Of a stretch of DNA of 64,000 nt, positions 4,349-53,488 are shown one piece after another (within the stretch, counting starts at the first letter, position 1; every line of letters starts with the position of its first letter). Under the pieces are notes generated by a model. It was given only the letters and a program-made list of their open reading frames with translations. It was not told where the DNA came from and ran no database searches. The stretch is from Chiloscyllium plagiosum (Eukaryota), in contig NC_057718.1 in assembly GCF_004010195.1 (NCBI RefSeq), positions 60,010,137 through 60,074,136 on the forward strand, in the 5' to 3' direction. Both the position numbers and the translations under genes were made by a program.

Positions 4349-4590
4349 TAAAAACCAAAAACAGCTGTGAATGCTGTATATCAGAAATAGAAACAGAAGT
4401 TGCTGGAAAAGCTCAACAGTCTGGCAGCATCTGTGAAGAGAAATCAAAGTTAATGTTTCAGGTCTGGTGACCCTTCCTCAGGACTCATGTTATGAGCCCT
4501 GAAGAAGGGTCACCAGACCCGAAATGTTAACTTCAATTTCTCTTCACAAATGCTGCCAGATCTGCTTTTCCAGAAACTTCTGTTTTTGTT
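4349..4590. mobile_element. Palindromic PLE derivative (family C) with hammerhead motifs on both arms
   Basis: Inverted arms gaaacagaagttgctggaaaagc... and ...gcttttccagaaacttctgttttt. Motif CTGAAGA-A-GGGTC-ACCA-GACCC-GAAA at about 4499-4524, with a reverse copy at about 4448-4484. Flanked by GCTAaTTACA (4339-4348) and GCTAgTTACA (4591-4600) as TSD. Confidence 0.85.
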
Positions 4591-7900: not shown

Positions 7901-8760
7901 AGCAATGAGGTATGCAGAAACATCCAGTAAAAAATGAGTAGAGCAAACAAATCATTGCATCAATCAGTGTGTAATACATTATAGATGTCAGCAGTGCCAA
8001 TTTGAAGATTGATATTCCAGCTAATGCCCACTCTTATATTTGCACAGTGAAATGCAGCAGGAAGGAACCTCCTTCTACCCATCACCATTGTAATGTATAA
8101 GGGAACAAGGATTAATTACCAACTGACTTCCATTTGTTATTTCAGTAATTTTTGAAAAATGTATGGCTTCTAGAGTTATTTAAATTTGCTAAAGTCTGTG
8201 AGGAGTGATGTGACAGGCACTAAAGGACTTCTTGGGTATAAAACAAAATTTATAAGGTAGAGGTTATGCATACCCAATGCATTCAGAGAATAATACTCCA
8301 ACCTGAATTTCAGTGAGGGAAATGTATGAGATGTCTAGACTTCAATAAGGGTATCTTCAATGAAATCTGCTACCTCCTACCCAAAACTACAACCTCCGAG
8401 TATGCCAAGTCTACAGTGCCACCAGCTATGAATTTGTCTGTGGTGATGAATTTTCATACATGTTGTTCTTTCTAGGTGGATAATGGTGATATTAGTATTT
8501 AGTTTCTGATCCTCATATAAGATGTCACTGAAATGATCTATTCAAAGATTGCTGGCTACATTTAATTCTCATTTTCTGCTGCTGGGGCAAACATACAGAT
8601 TTGATAGGATTATAGCTTCCCCTCATGCAGGAAGTAATAGTTTTTGTCTTATCTGAATGGAACACAAATGAGATGTATGGATTCTGTTTACTTGAAATTC
8701 CCTTGTGGGGCTTATTTACAGATACACTAGAGTAATTTCCAGACACAATCTGTGCCTAGA

Positions 8761-8968
8761 TTAGAGTAGTGCTGGAAAAGCACAGCAGTTCAGGCAGCAT
8801 CCGAGGAGCAGTAAAATCGACATTTCGGGAAAAGCCCTTCATCAGGAATATTCCTGCCCGAAACGTCGATTTTACTGCTCCTCGGATGCTGCCTGAACTG
8901 CTGTGCTGTTCCAGCACCACTCTAATCTAGACTCTGGTTTCCAGCATCTGCAGTCATTGTTTTTACCT
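8761..8968. mobile_element. Palindromic PLE derivative (family A) with perfect 16-bp TSD
   Basis: Near-perfect inverted arms at about 8757-8849 and 8850-8932. ACAATCTGTGCCTAGA occurs at 8745-8760 and 8969-8984. The minus strand carries CTGATGA-AGGGCTTTTCCC-GAAA-TG-TC. Confidence 0.9.
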
Positions 8969-18944: not shown

Positions 18945-19479
18945 AACATAACAGATGGAACTGATGATCAGAAATATATAAAAGATCTATATTACCAATG
19001 TAGTAATGCGATTTCACAGGTGCCCAGAATACTCCTGGACATATTCAGACCAACATCATGCTCAGGAATTCAGGCAAAGTCAAACCCCAATTTAAGCACA
19101 AGCATGGAATTTCAATTTTTCATGAAATTTACAGACATGCAATTGGCCAGTGAGAAAAAGAATGATTGCAATGTAATTATAAAAATTGGCCTGAATTTCA
19201 GGCATACTCAAATGAATATCTGCCACAAACAGCTAGTTTTACAATGAGTTCATTGGTGTAAATACAAATGCGGATTTGAAAGGGTGTGAGACCCAGAAAT
19301 TTAGATGGATGGATACAGTTATGGACATGGCCATTAAATGAATGGAAGGTCTGAAAATCTTTGCAAAAACTCAAAAGGCATCTTAACACTTTAAAAAGCC
19401 TTTTTATGGATGCTGATAGTGATCTCAGAAACAAAGGGCATCTGTAGACACATACTGGAAACCTTTTTGATGGTTTTAA

Positions 19480-20100
19480 AGTGGAGGTGGCATTGGACAC
19501 CAAGATTGATTATAGAGTGACTCTCTTTGGCATTTCATAACCTCATCTTCAAGGAGATTGCAGGACAGTGGCTCCATGTATGTGGACAGCAGATAATACA
19601 GGTCTACATCTACATGGTCCAGACTTTGTGAAGATATCCCTCAAATGTCCCTTGGTAGGTACAATTTGGTAGGACTGAGAATAAATTAGCCACAGTAGTA
19701 ACCCGCTGGAAGCTTCAAGTGACAATGAGAACTGTGTTCACTGGGCAGCAAGGGCTATCAGTTGATGACAAGACTGATGACTCTAGTATGCAAATTATGC
19801 ACACGTGCACAACATGGATATGATGAAAGTCATGCTACCAGACAGAAACTGATGGAAAAAATCAATAACTTCTTGAGATAATTCCTGTACTGTGTAGACT
19901 GCTCTGAAGGGTACCTGATACCCAGCAGCCTGAGTGCCAAGGTCCACAGTGCTTTGTATTTCACATAATTGGCATCATGACTGAATAACTTTTTCTCCAG
20001 GCTTTATTGGCAGTGGCTGAGGAGCTGAAGTAAGAAGAGTGGAAAGAGCATGAGGAAGAGGATGAAGGACAAAAAGAAAGGAATAGGGTAGGGTAGAAGA
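19480..20100 (+). mobile_element. PIF/Harbinger transposase fossil, C-terminal half
   Basis: From 19741: LGSKGYQLMTRLMTLVCKLCTRAQHGYDESHATRQKLMEKINNFLR*FLYCVDCSEGYL, matching the HARBI1-type pattern LGDxGYPLxxWLMTP..YNxSH..R..IE..LK.RF.CLD.SGG.L, followed by an acidic tail. Confidence 0.8.
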
Positions 20101-20169
20101 ACAGAATGGGATAATGTGTGCCTTTGGGTTCCTACCTCCCCAGGAAAATAACGAGAGGCCCCACACTGA

Positions 20170-21288
20170 TATATTTACATGTATTTGGAAAAGCAAGGAC
20201 CGATTAGGGATAGTCAACATGACTTTGTGAATGGAAAATCATGTCTCACAAACTTGATTGAGTTTATTGAAGAAGTAACAAGAGGGTTGATAAGGGCAGA
20301 GTGGTGGATGTGACTGACATGGACTTCAGTAAGGTGTTCAACAAGGTTCCTCATGGTAGACTGGTTGACAAGGTTAGATCACATGTAGAATAGGGAGAAC
20401 TAGCCATTTTTGGACAGCGAAGGAGGTTACTTCAGAGCACAACATGATCTTGGGTCAGATGGGTCAGTGGGCCAAAGAGTGGCAGAGGAGTTTAATTTAC
20501 ATAAATGTGAGGTGCTGCATTTTAGACAGGCAAATCAGGGCAGGACTTATACACTTAATGGCAAGGTCCTAGGGAGTGTTCCTGAACAAAGAGACCTTGG
20601 AGTGCAGGTTCACAGTTCTTTGAGAGTGAAATCTCTGGTAGATAGGATAGTGAAGAAGGCATTTGGTATGCTTTCCTTTATTGGTCAGAACATTGAGTAC
20701 AGGAGTTGGGAGGTCATGTTGGGCTGTACAGGACATTACTGAGGCCACTTTTGGAATATTGTGTGCAGTTCCAGTCTCCCTTCTATCGGAAAGATGTTGT
20801 GAAACTTGAAAGTGTTCAGAAAAGATATACAAGCATGTTGCTAGAATTGGAGGATTTGAGTGATAGGGAGAGGCTGAACAGGCTGGGGCTGTTTTCTCTG
20901 GAGTATTGGAGGCTGAAGGGTGACCTTGTAGAGATTTATAAAATCATGTGGAGCTTGGATAGGGTAAATAGACAACATCTTTTCCCTGGGGTTGGGGGAG
21001 TCCAGAACTCGAGAGCATAGGTTTAGGGTGAGAGGGAAAAGATTTAAAGGGATCTAAGGAGCAACTTTTTCATGCAAAGGGTAGTGCATGTATGGAATGA
21101 GCTGCCAGAGGAAGTGGTGGAGGCTGGTACAATTACAACATTTAAAAAACATCTGGATGGGTAGACGAATAGGAAGGGTTTAGACAGATATGGACCAAGT
21201 GCTGGCAAATGGGACTAGATTCTGGTCGGCATGAACGAGTTGAAGGGTCTGTTTCCATGTTGTGCATCTCTGTGACTCTCTGACTCTA
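20170..21288 (+). mobile_element. CR1/HER1-type LINE, 5'-truncated, with an internal deletion
   Basis: KSCLTNLIEF, DMDFSKVFNKVPH, KCEVLHF, RPLLEYCVQF motifs and a 3' tail ending (TGACTCT)n. Confidence 0.95.
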
Positions 21289-21289
21289 T

Positions 21290-21696
21290 CATCACCCAAT
21301 CTGCCTCTGACCCACATATGGGGACCACTGGCATCTTTCACCCAGGTGACTATACCCTCAACCTTCACACCTGGCTGACAGTTGAAACCAAAGCCCATGC
21401 ACGTAAACATAGTTCCAACTTCTTATAGCAACCCCCACCCCCGACAACTTGGAAGAATGAAAGAAAGGGCAGGAATATGCTAAGGAATCCCAGACAGACT
21501 CCCCTTCATAAAGTCCACTGTCCCCAGAAGAGGAGAATTCCCACAACCGATCTCCAAACCCAATCTATGCTATAACCGTGGCTGAACTAGCCATTCAATT
21601 TGGGACTGTTGGGCATCTAAAGTTCCAACCTGGGCACTGGGAAGTTTGGAGAAAAAGGGTCAACATCCAGGATACCATCCTGGAAGCAACAGCTGA
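21290..21696 (+). pseudogene. gag: Gag C-terminal remnant with nucleocapsid zinc knuckle
   Basis: PNL-C-YN-R-G*TS-H-SIWD-C-WASK has exact CX2CX4HX4C spacing, with the second Cys changed TGT>CGT and a TGA probably from CGA. Confidence 0.75.
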
Positions 21697-21899
21697 AAGG
21701 AAAACAGGCTGTGGATTATACGATGAGGATGACAGGGAAACCCTGTCATGGGTATAGCTTTAAAGGTCCCCAGCTACGAGTGCACAAGCTGCCATCCACA
21801 TCCGGGACACATTTATTCTCTTGCTGCTTTTGTTTTCATTTTAAAAGAAAAGGTGGGGGGAGGCAGGAATGGGTGACAATTGGAATGATTTGATAATTT

Positions 21900-23200
21900 T
21901 AAAATGTTATCTGGAACAAGGTGTCAGATATTAGACCAAGATATTTACAGAAATTACTTGTCTTTTTATTAGAAACTGCACTGGAGCGGCTACTCCAAAA
22001 CAGCGATGCAACTATTACAGAGGGCTTATTGTGTATTAAGTATTATTGTAATGACTGTATCCAAAACATAGCATCGGTGCAAGTGAAAACGATGTACCCA
22101 GGAAACCTATGGTATGACTCACCAGATGCTGTGGTATGTGTCGATGGGACCCTCAAGCAGTTAATAGATGAAAGAAAAGGGAACTGTTTAATGATCTAGC
22201 CACAGCATACAGGGCAGGACTGTCAATGGTCAAAACCCTTTATTTAGCTAATTTGGAAAATAAACTCAGGATATTGACAGAACAAGTCAAATGAGCCCTA
22301 GAAGAACTAAATACAATTGACAAGAGACCACGGGATAACTATAGAGAATCAGGCTAGCTACTGCTTAGTGACCTACTTGATAAAGTAAAAGATAATTAAA
22401 CAGATCATCCAGGGCAAAATCAGGGATGACAGTGAACAGAAAAACTGCATCCTGTGCAGCATCTACAGAAACTGGACGATTAAGCAGCTGAGGGAGGACC
22501 TCAGGTAGTCTAACCAACAGAAAGTCCCATCTTGGATCAGTAATGTGTGCTGTATGACTCTGACTTTATGAACAGCTCGAACATTTGTTCCAGGAGAGAA
22601 CCCACAGTCACATTCTCCAGCTGTCAGTCATGACAACTCACCAAGGTGTGGTATAATGACAACTGCAAGGACTCTCTTGACGAGGTGCTAGGCTTGATGC
22701 TCGGAATTCTAATTATTCCAAGTGACATTGGGTTGAGGACCTTTGAAGTAAAAAATATTGGATTTATTAAAATAGGTATTTGAATGGGCTACTATGAATC
22801 CCACTCCACCCCACCCCCTCCCTCCCTCACATGCTGTGGGGAAGGAGGGGACAATTGACAGGGACAACTTGAACAAACCGATCATATCATCGTGCCCACA
22901 AACTGACAACCATGAATTCGGCTCCTTTCATATCTATCTGAGGACCTAATTGCACTCACCTTGATATACCTCAGGATATGTTGGTTAGGATTGCAGGCTG
23001 GATCAGATACCCCACTCATCATGAATAAAACTGTACATGCGCACAGGGACTTTAGGTGGATGGAATTCCCAAGGTTATCATTATTGTCACTTCTATTTGT
23101 TGTGATTACTGAATGTTGTCTATGTACTACAATCCTGTATGGATTATCGAGACAAGTGTTTCCTTTTTTTTGTACATATGATAAGTTTGACCAATGTACA
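21900..23200 (+). pseudogene. env: Env / class I fusion glycoprotein remnant (frameshifted, internally deleted)
   Basis: NR*KKR|ELFNDLATAYRAGLSMVKTLYLANLENKLRILTEQVK*ALEELNTID; downstream in other frames ILCSIYRNWTIKQLREDLR*SNQQKVPSWISN and VLGLMLGILIIPSDIGLRTFEVKNIGFIK; TM-like RLSLLSLLFVVITECCLCTTILYGL. Confidence 0.65.
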
Positions 23201-23307
23201 TAACGGCTTTCATATGAATACGTAGGCTCCCCTGACAACAAACATAACCAACTTTTGCAATTAGGTTTGAACTTTATTCAAATAAGCTGTTTTCTGTTCA
23301 AAATGGG

Positions 23308-24720
23308 GGTTATGCCGCAGCCTCCTGGCTGCAAAAACACAGATAGATTGCTCACTTAGCCAAACAGCAAGGGCCGCTGTGTATGTTGGCTAAGTAAAAC
23401 TCTGAAATGACAAAATACACACACCAGACACACTGCAATCACAGCAGCCAGGTGCTAATGACATTAGCATTGCGTAAAAGGACAGATATATCTGAACAAC
23501 TTATCCATTAAACAATGGAGAGCCACGATAGAAAGAACCGGTTCTGCTACACAAAGAAACAAAGTGTAGCATGCCATCCAAATGATTGACTCTTGCTTCA
23601 AACTATTAAGTGTATCGCCCAGATTTCCAGAAATATAGAAAGTTCTGAAAAATCACCTAAAAAGTATAAAAACAGGGCTCACCTGCAGATCTTGCTCTTG
23701 GAATCTTCTGAGGCCTTCTGAGGAGATCAGCATGGCAAGAGGCAGAGACCAAAAGCTCTTTGACTGCACAATGAACTCTCTGCCACAACGCCATGGCCTC
23801 CTCAGCCTTCCAGCTCTTTGACCACACAACGAACCTCTCTCAGAGGTGCACTCAGTGAGTCCATTTCTCACTGCCACAATGCCATGACCTCCTCAGCCCT
23901 CCAGCTCTTTGACAACACGATGAAGTCTTCGCTACATCGGGGAGACTGAACGTAAATTTAGGGAACGATTGGCCGAGCATCACAGCCAGGCCCACAGGAG
24001 TCAACTGGACCTTCCAGTCATAGTCTATTTCAACTCCCCTTCCCACTCCATTTCCGACATGACCATCCTTGTCGTCTTCCTTTGCCACAACAAACCACAT
24101 TGCAAATTGGAGGAACAACACCTCATCTTCTGCTTGGGCAGTCTACAGTGAGCTCCCCAATTCCAAATAATCTCTGTTCCCAGACCCTCCCCCTTCCTTC
24201 CACTCCTCCCTGCCACCAACCGGATTCATTCCTCCCTTTGACCAACCAGGTCATACACTCTGCCTGTTTTCACCTAACCCACTTCACCACTCTGCCCCTG
24301 CCATCCCCTTTATCTGCAGCTCCCCCTATACCCACACCCAGTCCTGAAGAAGGGTTACACCCGAAACATTGACTTTGCCACCTCCTGATGTTGCCTGGCT
24401 TGCTGTGTTCTTCCGGCCTCCTGTCTGTCTACAAGAAGCAGAGACCAGCTGACCACCTAGAGACAGAGAAAGAGAGAGAGAGAGCAGAAGAAAGCAGCTT
24501 CGCAGACCCAGAGACAGAGCCATGGACAGCGTGACTGCATAAATTTACAAGAGACTCAGGAAGGGGCCAAATTGAATTAGGGATGTTATGTTTAGCATTA
24601 AAGATTATTGTAATTTTGTTCCTAATGAAGTAGCACTGTTATGCATTGGTACTGTTTGGTGTTCGTTTCGATTTCACTGCTTCAGTATTGTGAGACACCT
24701 GGGCAAATTCATTCATAACA
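23308..24720 (+). mobile_element. 3' LTR (about 730 bp net) interrupted by a PLE insertion
   Basis: Starts directly at the purine run AAAATGGGGG. Ends GGTTATG (23308) and CATAACA (24714-24720) form the TGTTATG..CATAACA terminal inverted repeat with one change. TATAAAA at about 23665 and ATTAAA at about 24597. Confidence 0.6.
23752..24431 (+). mobile_element. Penelope-like element 3' fragment (GIY-YIG endonuclease plus hammerhead) inserted in the LTR
   Basis: LRYIGETERKFRERLAEH...HCKLEEQHLIFCLGSLQ. Motif AGTC-CTGAAGA-A-GGGT-TAC-ACCC-GAAA-CA-TT-GACT at 24340-24374. TSD CAAGAgGCAGAGACCA (23736-23751) and CAAGAaGCAGAGACCA (24432-24447). Confidence 0.9.
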
Positions 24721-25765
24721 TTCTGATTGGAGTTGTCTGTAACTTGTTTAAAGAGGAACTAGATAACAATATCTAAACAGCCCTTCTTTGAATGGGTTGT
24801 TCATGAGGAATGCATTCAAGTGTGATACCAATAAAGACAACTCCAATTCCCCATTCACTGACAGTCTTACCTCCTTTCTGTCACTGATGGTCACATCGAC
24901 TTGATCTTGATGAAATAATACAAGCTATTAGAAAATAAATACTTAAAATCAAACTTATAAATGAAACTGTGACATGTTGCTTCCCCTGAGTAACTGTTTT
25001 CTTAGGCCTCTGCCTAGCCTGGTGCTGTTACACAAAGCATCCCAGTGGCTGTAGCATGAATGTTCAAAAGTTGCTGATGTTCACTGGGTGAGATTGTAGA
25101 TGGACTTGCAGAATGGCTTCAAGCAGCTCTAGGTCTCCTGTCTGCAGACTGTGCCATCTCAGTATTAATGGCATTCATCTGTGGGTTGGCTGGCAAGCGA
25201 CAGAAACAATACTGGCAGAGTGGTAATGGTGGGAGAATGAGTGAGAGCAGACAAGAGGTTCATGCTGCACAGGGTGACTGCCACTCACCTGGCATGCAGT
25301 CTCATTAATCTGAGTAATCTATGGAAGGCTAGATGGCTGGACTTATGTGAGACCCTAAAAGCTCCTTTACACACTGCAGCCATGGGTGCCTGAACTTGCA
25401 TAAGAACAAGCTGATCTCACATGATAGTGATCTAAACTCAAGTGTGCTACATGGAAGCTACAAAGTTAATTATAAGGGACAGCATCACAGTTGGTTCCAC
25501 AAGTAAGCAAAAAGAGTTAGCCAATATTTTCCTCCTGAAATGAGCTCCAAGCTCTGTAAAAAAACAAACCTGTATCATGTTGATGCTGGTCTCCTTTATG
25601 CTGTTTGATATCGACTGAATACAGCCAGAAATCAATTTTCTTTTCTGTAAGCTTCCCCTTTGGAGTGTTCATCTGAATAATCTGCAACATAACCACTTCC
25701 TTCCAGCAAGATGGTGTTTCCACTATCCTTGCAGAAAGCCAGTATGGGCATGATAGGTGGAATAG

Positions 25766-39445: not shown

Positions 39446-39517
39446 TCCCTGGTGGTCGAGTGGTTAGGATTTGGCACTGTCACCGCTGTGGCCCGGGTGC
39501 GACTCCTGGTTAGGAAA
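39446..39517 (+). pseudogene. tRNA-Glu-derived pseudogene (anticodon now reads GTC)
   Basis: 72 nt TCCCTGGTGGTCGAGTGGTTAGGATTTGGCACTGTCACCGCTGTGGCCCGGGTGCGACTCCTGGTTAGGAAA aligns without gaps to vertebrate tRNA-Glu(CTC). Anticodon stem and T-loop (GTTCGA>GTGCGA) are damaged, mostly by CpG transitions. Confidence 0.88.
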
Positions 39518-40499
39518 CGGGAGTTTCCCGCTGGTCTGCAGGAAGTGAAGCCTGTAGCTAAGAAGTAAAAGGTGTGTGCTTCTGATTGTATTAAATATAA
39601 AACTTATTAAACAAAATGTCTGAGTGAAATCTCCATGGGTGTTAAGTTCCATTGTATAATTGTAGGCAGTGGGATTCTAGCAAAGAAGTGTTGAATTTCC
39701 CTGACTTGTCTTGAATTAACTCAGTGGAAGTATGCCTACAGCTGGAAAATGTACCCCATTTTCTTTCTTTTGAGCTGAATTCAAATGTATTGTATACTGC
39801 CTCTTGCTTCAGATGTACTGCGCTCAACATTGGTAATGAGATTATCTGGGAGATGTGTTGCCATATACAGTGATAGGATCCAGTTGGTACAAAATCCATT
39901 TTTTATATTTTAATATTAAAGTTTAACAAGAATTTAACTGATATGTTTAACTAGCTCAGAATGTCTCATATAAATGATTTAGAAATGTCATTAGCAGCTG
40001 TGGGCTTGGAAGCAGAGGTCTGTGCACATGTACAAAGCTCTGCTTTCACCAATTCAGCAACAATATGGGCAGATAACAGAAATGTGATTGCCAGTCCACT
40101 TTGCTATAGTTGCTGTACCATTCTAAATTATGTGCCTTAGATATTAATGTTGCATTGTTATCAGAATGCTTCTTTCTATGTTTTTTCTTGTCCATGCAAG
40201 GCCTGGATGTTACATAAAAATCCCCGTTTTTCAGTGGACAAGCAATAAAACAAAATAAAGAGTTTCAACAGAAAATCTTCATCTCTGAAAATGGCTGTCA
40301 AGATTTTTGTCTTATGACCTCAACTTCATCATGATCAATTAAGTAAGAGTAGGATTGTCTTCCTCCATTATGTCCATGCATTCTCATCACTTCCTATCCC
40401 TGCTGAAACTGTTTAGTTCATAGGTAGGAAGAGATTGAGAAGTTGAAAAATCATACATGATTACAAAGCATTATTTTTGCTGGGAGTCACTTCTCCTTT

Positions 40500-42391: not shown

Positions 42392-42985
42392 GATAGTGAA
42401 GAAGGCATTTGGTATGCTTGCCTTTATTGATCAGAGTATTGATTATAGGAGTTGGGAGGTCATTGTATGGCCACGTTTGGAATACTGCATTCAATTCAGT
42501 TTTAATGCTACAGGAAAGATGTTGTGAAACTTGAAAGGGTTCAGAAAAGATTTACAAGAATGTTACCAGGATGGGAGCGTTTGAGCTACAGGGAGAGGCT
42601 AAAAAGATTGGGGTCATTTTCCCCGGAACATCAGTAGCTGAGAGGTTACCTTTTAGAAGTGTATAAAATTGTGAGCAGCATGGGTAGGGTGAACAGTCAA
42701 GGTCTTTTCCCCAGGGTAGGAAAGCCCAAAGCTAGAGGGCATAGATTTAAGGTGAGAGGGAAAAGATTTAAAAGGGATCTATGGAGCCACCTTTTCACGC
42801 ATTGATGGTGAGTGCATGGAATGAACTGCCACAGAATGTGGTGGAGGCTGGTATAATTGCAACATTTAAAAGGTATCTGGATGGTTACATGAATAGGAAG
42901 GGTTTAAGAGTGATATGGGCCAAATGCTGGCAAATGGGACTGGATTAATTTGGGATATTTGGTCAGCATGGATGAGTGGACCATG
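42392..42985 (+). mobile_element. CR1/HER1-type LINE 3' fragment
   Basis: Closely parallels 20645-21240 (GATAGTGAAGAAGGCATTTGGTATGCTT...). Confidence 0.92.
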
Positions 42986-52584: not shown

Positions 52585-53488
52585 GTAAGTGCGGATGACA
52601 CCAAAATTGGTAGTATAGTGGACTGTGAAGAAGATTATCTAAGAGTACAATGAGATCTTGATCATCTGGGCCAATGAGTCAAGAAGCAGCAGATGGAGTT
52701 TAATTTAGTTAAATGTGAGCTGATGCGTTTTGGTAAGGCAAACAAGGGTAGGACATACATAGTTAATGGTGGGGCCCTGGGGACTGAAGTTGAACAGAGG
52801 GACTGAAGGATGTTAGTTCATAATTCCTTGAAAGCGACATCACAGATAAACAGAGTGGTGAAGAAAGCATTGACATGCTTACCTTCATTGATCAGAGCAT
52901 TGAGTATAGGAGTTGGGACTTCATGTTGTGGCTATATAAGACTTTGATGAGGCCACTTTTAGAGTACTGTATACAATTTTGATCACCCTATTATAGGAAA
53001 GATGTTGTGAAACTTGTAAGAATGCAAAAACAATTTACAAGGATTCTGCTGGGATTGGAGGGTTTGAGTTATAAGGGAGGTTGGGATTTGTTTCCTGGCA
53101 GCACTGGGGGCTTCAGGGTGACCTTATAAAATTATGAGGGGCATTGATAGGATGAATAGTCAAAGGACTTTTTCTCAGAATAAAGGAGTCCAAAACTAGA
53201 GGGCGTAGGTTTAAGGTGAGAGAGAAAAGATTTAAAAAGGACCTAAGGAGCAACTTTTTCAATCAGAAGGTGATGTGTGTATGGAATGAGCTGCCTGAGA
53301 AGGTGGTAGAGGTAGGTGCAATTATAACATTTAAAAGACATTTGGACAGGCACGTGAATAGGAAAGCTTTAGAGGGATATGGGCCAAACTCGGACAAATG
53401 GGACTAGTTTAGTTTGGGAAACCTGATCAGCATGGACAAGTTGGATGGAAGGATCCACTTCCATGCTGTTTGGCTTTATAACTCTATG
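52585..53488 (+). mobile_element. CR1/HER1-type LINE 3' fragment nested in the older CR1
   Basis: ADDTKIGSIVDCEEDYLRVQ*DLD, RPLLEYCIQF and WNELPEKVVEVG motifs; tail ATAACTCTATGA. Confidence 0.92.

Follow-up and report, generated by a model that had tools for sequence, protein, structure and literature searches.

A decayed env of probable F-type ancestry at the 3' end of an LTR element in the shark Chiloscyllium plagiosum

What kind of envelope protein was encoded by the LTR element at this locus of Chiloscyllium plagiosum (NC_057718.1), and to which retroelement lineage did it belong? A preliminary description, made from the sequence alone, had proposed a fossil env similar to the F proteins of pneumoviruses and paramyxoviruses and had assigned it to a shark lokiretrovirus-like family. 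Here, we analysed the whole stretch of 64,000 nt (hereafter the window, to which all coordinates refer; every part of the element lies on the plus strand). We found that the LTR element carries, at its 3' end, an env that is dead and has undergone frameshifts and an internal deletion. The ancestral gene probably encoded an F-type class I fusion glycoprotein, a member of the superfamily that includes paramyxovirus and pneumovirus F, foamy virus Env, lokiretrovirus Env and errantivirus Env.

The env remnant and its relatives

The frame-2 read-through of the remnant was used as a phmmer query against 1.84 billion proteins and retrieved five matches, four of them true relatives (E 3.7e-9 to 1.4e-4): P0001 and P0004 (both from ENA), P0003 from Scyliorhinus torazame (GCB82951.1) and P0005 from Rhincodon typus. 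We discarded the fifth match, P0002, a bacterial protein with Ig repeats. A profile of the relatives added two more among 8000 scored candidates, namely P0006 (JGI, 311 aa, E 2.3e-19) and P0007 from Pristiophorus japonicus (UniRef, 419 aa, E 5.1e-16). All six are collinear on the window, and we use them to read the following parts.

21670..21868, plus strand: multicopy internal segment 5' of env, from contig depth; no Pfam family
about 21870-23000, plus strand: dead env remnant, followed by the polypurine tract and the 3' LTR
21869..22165, plus strand: putative env leader and F2-like region; ATG at 21869, all frames broken
22166..22180, plus strand: position of the basic cleavage site, with a stop inside; aligned with RVKR in P0003, RHKR in P0005 and RQRR in P0007
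22181..22327, plus strand: fusion-peptide-like amphipathic segment and HR1, from homology and a heptad test; frame 2, one stop
22389..22547, plus strand: helical ectodomain piece, matched in tblastn by P0003, P0001, P0004 and P0007; frame 3, one stop
22559..22897, plus strand: ectodomain piece rich in strands; frame 2, switching to frame 3 over a short stretch, with two stops
22897..22910, plus strand: junction left by the loss of about 170 codons within env, from the mapping of P0006 residues 86 and 259
22910..22996, plus strand: TM remnant, matching the TM region of P0006; frame 2, one stop
23296..23307, plus strand: polypurine-tract-like run in the sequence, located where depth rises
23308..24768, plus strand: 3' LTR, from depth and imperfect inverted ends; terminates in ...TAACA

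The layout given by the relatives consists of an R-x-K/R-R site (intact in P0003, P0005 and P0007), an amphipathic fusion segment of mild hydrophobicity (0.18-0.8), HR1, a cysteine-rich block, HR2 and a TM with a hydropathy of 2.76. Sequons are present, and the distance from cleavage site to TM is about 410 residues when P0007 is put in register on P0006. P0007 is an uninterrupted env stretch of 419 residues, from 5' of the cleavage site to HR2, indicating that younger copies of the family exist in the sawshark. In word-based protein searches, none of the 71 candidates for the fusion piece was a relative and alignment A1 recovered P0003 alone among 8000. Viral and metagenome contig scans for loci of the env family returned no matches.

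The preliminary description had read a basic motif interrupted by a stop, followed by a fusion-peptide-like stretch and a heptad repeat. We recovered the same string in one forward frame from 22163, with stops in the motif at 22166-22180 and in the heptad. The heptad itself (22244-22327; a/d positions L-L-L-L-V-A-L-I) has a contrast equalled by only 0.4% of the 1422 six-frame stretches of 90 residues in the window. The segment at 22181..22327 is 59% identical to P0003 over 46 residues and 67% identical to P0005 over 39, and its alignment with P0007 was equalled in none of 2000 shuffles. Further downstream, the piece at 22559..22897 matches P0001 (45% over 78 residues), P0006 (40% over 88) and P0004 (43% over 68), and terminates where the cysteine-rich block begins.

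Residue 86 of P0006 falls at 22894 and residue 259 at 22910. Since the residues between them are unmatched, the window copy has lost about 170 codons internally; as judged from this mapping, the loss took away the greater part of the cysteine-rich block, together with HR2 and the membrane-proximal part. Accordingly, neither P0006 90-245 nor P0007 270-419 has a match in 21850-23310 (1154 and 993 of 2000 shuffles, respectively, were as good). The long ectodomain once proposed to follow the cleavage site is thus found in the relatives, but is not whole in this copy. The TM remnant aligns ungapped with P0006 259-287, with 11 of 29 residues identical, a score equalled in seven of 2000 shuffles. A TM-like segment is therefore present, as previously claimed, but at 22910-22996, where the TM of the relative maps; the most hydrophobic stretch, at 23081, was dropped as a candidate. 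The frame stays open beyond the mapped TM (23016-23203) and into this other hydrophobic stretch, where hydropathy is 2.32 at 23081, likely as a read-through of T-rich 3' sequence.

On the 5' side, 104 codons separate the ATG at 21869 from the basic site, which suggests a short F2, close to the 90 or so codons estimated before, but this upstream part matches no relative and does not align with the N-terminus of P0007 (1585 of 2000 shuffles were as good). Just 5' of this ATG, at 21838-21866, a pyrimidine (T) run and a purine tract that differs from the 3' one could be, by eye, an env splice acceptor or an internal polypurine tract.

With six stops in the pieces matched by relatives, at least four frame changes (matches alternate between frames 2 and 3) and no HR2, the window copy is nonfunctional. 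Host co-option is ruled out by these stops and frame changes, by the deletion and by a divergence like that of the flanks. One single-cell polyA run, about 2% of which was sampled, gave a depth of 0-1 over env, too thin to show silence.

The LTR and the copy pattern of the family

The depth used here sums the contigs of three species labels placed on the window at 80% likeness, and is not a copy number. It lies at about 6-17 in the flanks, except in three isolated bins next to repeats (64, 19 and 39). From 15-17 in 21464-21687 it rises to 50-64 in 21688-21911, continues at 49-59 in 21912-22135 and 52-717 over env, and reaches 329-2238 in 23256-23927 and 651-1370 in 24600-24823; past 24824 it falls back to 10-17, with one bin of 39. 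The multicopy part begins near 21670, and the pattern is that of a multicopy LTR family in which LTRs are much more abundant than internal parts.

The LTR segment measures 1.46 kb, or about 950 bases when a roughly 500-base insert of younger age (about 23930-24440) is not counted. Its inverted ends are imperfect (5 of the 6 first letters) and it contains a TATA-like word at 23665. Of the linkage to an LTR element that had been claimed for this env, the 3' LTR is confirmed, but no second LTR copy or 5' LTR, gag or pol was identified within the window. The younger insert has a very high depth and reads Y-I-G-E-T...R..EH in one frame, which we take to resemble the GIY-YIG end of Penelope elements; it had no Pfam match at E<=1.

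The same locus is covered in organisms B and C, where one piece joins the LINE end to env and another joins the end of the LTR to the 3' flank. Divergence across the three species labels is 3.9-5.6% in env and 3.1-4.4% in the flanks. Because the locus is common to the three labels and env has diverged like its flanks, the insertion must predate the split of the species, with env drifting neutrally ever since.

Kinship with F-type fusion glycoproteins

The kinship of this env with F-type proteins is likely, although it rests on weak signals that converge, and no single test was significant for F. Two features of the relatives are of the F type: a basic site directly before the fusion segment and HR1, and, in P0006 and P0007, HR1 and HR2 separated by an extended cysteine-rich region, with the TM coming next; the window copy has lost this region. 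The order of fusion peptide, HR1, cysteine-rich region, HR2 and TM is also that of pneumovirus (RSV, hMPV) and paramyxovirus F (PF00523). The distance from cleavage site to TM is about 390 residues in RSV F. Moreover, the first four cysteine gaps of P0006 (9-12-10-23) and P0007 (10-12-12-23) are all within 3 residues of those of RSV F (9-15-11-23; positions from PMC1540417), a likeness found in 15 and 31 of 20000 shuffles, respectively, with a tolerance chosen after seeing the data. The likeness does not extend to the later gaps, the next one being 15-16 residues long vs 6 in RSV F. Pneumovirus and paramyxovirus F further differ from the shark protein in that sequence similarity is undetectable, and the shark fusion segment is less hydrophobic and encoded by an LTR element.

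When the P0007 model was searched against the PDB with Foldseek, F proteins of RSV or hMPV took every one of ranks 1-10 (E 0.021-0.12); PIV5 F came at rank 16, the first unrelated chain at rank 18 and foamy Env at rank 22. No match reached E<=0.001, TM-scores were near 0.1, and the ranking may be driven by the long helices at the ends of the model. Both structure models were poor (pLDDT 40 and 35), and the second retrieved no F protein in Foldseek. There was likewise none among the best 50 matches listed from BFVD, and wide fold searches (VIA) gave generic helices or strands, with no F family among the matches listed. Trimer prediction of P0007 33-364 scored 0.01, which counts neither for nor against. 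By ESM Atlas features, P0003 came close to clusters of Baculo_F (0.92), haemagglutinin (0.91) and Fusion_gly (0.91), and scores of 0.9 were reached by 4-10% of shuffles; P0001 had no usable match.

Searches by sequence were negative. Pfam hmmscan found no fusion, gag or pol family in ten pieces of the window and no fusion family in the relatives (PF00523, Baculo_F, Gypsy and foamy Env were all unmatched), and PHROGs gave no match. The preliminary description had aligned the segment by eye with RSV and hMPV F; this alignment found no statistical support, and PDB searches with the env piece, two relatives and four profiles retrieved no F chain at E<=10. Matches to coiled coils of henipavirus-type phosphoproteins in the PDB (best E 0.006) were rejected as generic heptad matches. 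Of the checks that had been suggested, HMMER against Pfam was thus negative, and Foldseek gave, from a poor model, a weak signal in favor of RSV and hMPV F.

The contrast with gamma-type Env (TLV_coat) is clearer. Both have a furin site, a fusion peptide, a heptad and a TM, but the CX6CC motif is absent, as already noted in the preliminary description, from 21250-23400 and from all six relatives, which jointly span the region from cleavage site to tail. Additionally, the C-terminal subunit of gamma-type Env is less than half as long as that of the shark env. The relatives support an F-like rather than gamma-type layout, and the fold ranking and the cysteine spacing do so weakly.

The lack of any significant profile or fold match would also be expected if the protein were not an F-type fusogen at all. 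It might then be an env of some unrelated kind or a membrane protein of the host, in either case with a generic coiled coil; alternatively, the gene could have been captured from a paramyxovirus and lie outside any retroelement. Paramyxovirus-like EVEs have in fact been reported in sharks, according to the available part of bioRxiv 2023.10.17.562709. We regard such an origin as quite unlikely, given the agreement of the polypurine tract and LTR directly 3', the multicopy depth, the conserved basic site, the cysteine spacing and the fold ranking.

Assuming an F-type ancestor, its fold, trimeric state, cleavage and fusion activity can be inferred from the established biology of class I fusion. 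Cleavage of the precursor by furin at R-x-K/R-R would have released the amphipathic fusion segment as a new N-terminus, which would enter the target membrane, carried on a trimeric HR1 coiled coil. HR1 would be followed by a strand-rich head linked by disulfides, and HR2, next to the TM, would then fold back to form a six-helix bundle, merging the membranes. With such an Env, particles could have gained entry to further cells, among them those of the germ line.

The retroelement lineage and its genomic setting

Our best guess, which we hold at somewhat less than an even chance, is a retrovirus of cartilaginous fishes outside the lokiretroviruses, either spuma-like or of class III. The lokiretroviruses come next, as a doubtful alternative; Metaviridae are unlikely, and so is any other lineage.

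The label of shark lokiretrovirus could not be confirmed. Lokiretroviruses (renamed lokiortervirus in PMC9040795) are defined by their RT and, in the available text of PMC7947760, carry gag-pol-env between two LTRs, with a tether and RNase H; the window contains no RT. Their Env is similar to that of the shark family, being part of a vertebrate LTR element, with an RXKR-type site, a fusion peptide, a coiled coil, a TM and an F-like instead of orthoretroviral character. The 104 or so codons between ATG and site also fit, since a receptor-binding insert of the foamy type seems to be absent. Such a virus would be the first lokiretrovirus of cartilaginous fish, with a truncated or non-autonomous copy here, and pol-less relatives that would escape an RT screen do exist, as described for BHIKHARI (available part of bioRxiv 2024.03.25.586437). 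Nevertheless, no bony-fish or amphibian protein is named among the env relatives matched, and the PF00523 similarity reported for lokiretrovirus Env was not reproduced by hmmscan for the shark env. The RT screen, as far as the available text of PMC7947760 describes it, found lokiretroviruses in none of six chondrichthyan genomes, including those of S. torazame and R. typus. Because both species hold env relatives, either the RT of the family is not of the loki type or it was lost as in BHIKHARI.

An errantivirus-like Ty3/gypsy element with an env of the baculovirus-F type has in its favor that the three top Atlas clusters of P0003 carry Baculo_F on 11-23% of their members. Errantivirus and baculovirus F-type Env (PF12259, PF07253) share the furin site with the shark env and occur in LTR retrotransposons, and the available part of Chary and Hayashi (bioRxiv 10.1101/2023.10.26.564294) describes F-type env as widespread in invertebrate Ty3/gypsy. 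This origin is unlikely, because the Atlas margin over Fusion_gly is 0.01 and no Baculo_F or Gypsy family was matched in Pfam. In the same available text, these elements are described from invertebrates, and intact vertebrate homologues were not found.

A genuine endogenous foamy virus, which is included in our best guess, is in itself improbable. Foamy Env (available part of PMC11468914) is retroviral and has an F fold, a long C-terminal subunit (378 residues from cleavage at 570 to the TM at 948) and a furin site directly before the central helix. Two further features of foamy Env, a large insert for receptor binding and a leader that contains a TM of its own, are not seen here, where the 5' part is putative and possibly deleted; the short SU would then reflect another deletion. 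The junction between polypurine tract and LTR is, in this decayed copy, one letter off GGGTG, a motif of foamy-like fish ERVs; one foamy-like teleost Env has only about 227 residues between cleavage site and TM (both from the available part of PMC5210030). On the other hand, neither the Pfam family nor a foamy chain was matched by sequence, foamy Env ranked below pneumovirus F in Foldseek with the P0007 model, and accessory genes are absent, the TM lying about 300 bases from the LTR.

Within the preferred reading of a retrovirus outside the lokiretroviruses, we tentatively suggest, as a possibility and not a probability, a shark-wide lineage that is neither loki nor foamy and has a compact F-type Env without the receptor-binding insert. 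If true, a fusogen like that of paramyxoviruses and pneumoviruses would be present on a third branch of vertebrate retroelements, which would speak for F as the original envelope of retroviruses, with a later replacement in orthoretroviruses. Foamy Env, F-like according to the available part of PMC11468914, is a third owner of such a protein besides lokiretroviruses and errantiviruses, and was missing among the candidates considered before. Wang and Han list four scenarios for the origin of retroviral env (available text of PMC7947760), and placement of the RT of the shark family would be a direct test of them.

The env in the window is real and decayed, and is probably a member of the known F-type Env class. 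As this locus holds only a decayed and deleted copy, with no sign of co-option, its value lies in the family: an F-type env in three named sharks fills the blank left by the loki screen in cartilaginous fish, whatever its RT. We found no description of such a family in the literature consulted, in the parts available (including PMC9040795, PMC8922424, PMC10699275, PMC8672886, PMC13709493 and bioRxiv 2023.10.17.562709).

Several other repeats surround the element. The A-rich stretch at about 21290-21790 has a depth near single-copy before about 21670 and contains an open frame of 81 codons (21512-21754) that looks gag- or integrase-like by eye; a Pfam match of this frame to zf-RVT (E 0.06) was too weak to be accepted. 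Upstream, a decayed stretch at 19000-20160, which terminates in an acidic run, looks by eye like a Harbinger nuclease, a likeness for which Pfam gave no support. Short-spaced inverted repeats of 69-83 bases at 1724-1888, 4420-4560 and 8747-8939 are MITE-like or head-to-head pieces of SINEs, and a tRNA-Asp(GTC) predicted by ARAGORN at 39446-39518 may be the head of a SINE. Finally, the segment at about 20170-21290 is the 3' fragment of an abundant LINE, presumably CR1-like, with more copies near 42400-42950 and 52700-53400.
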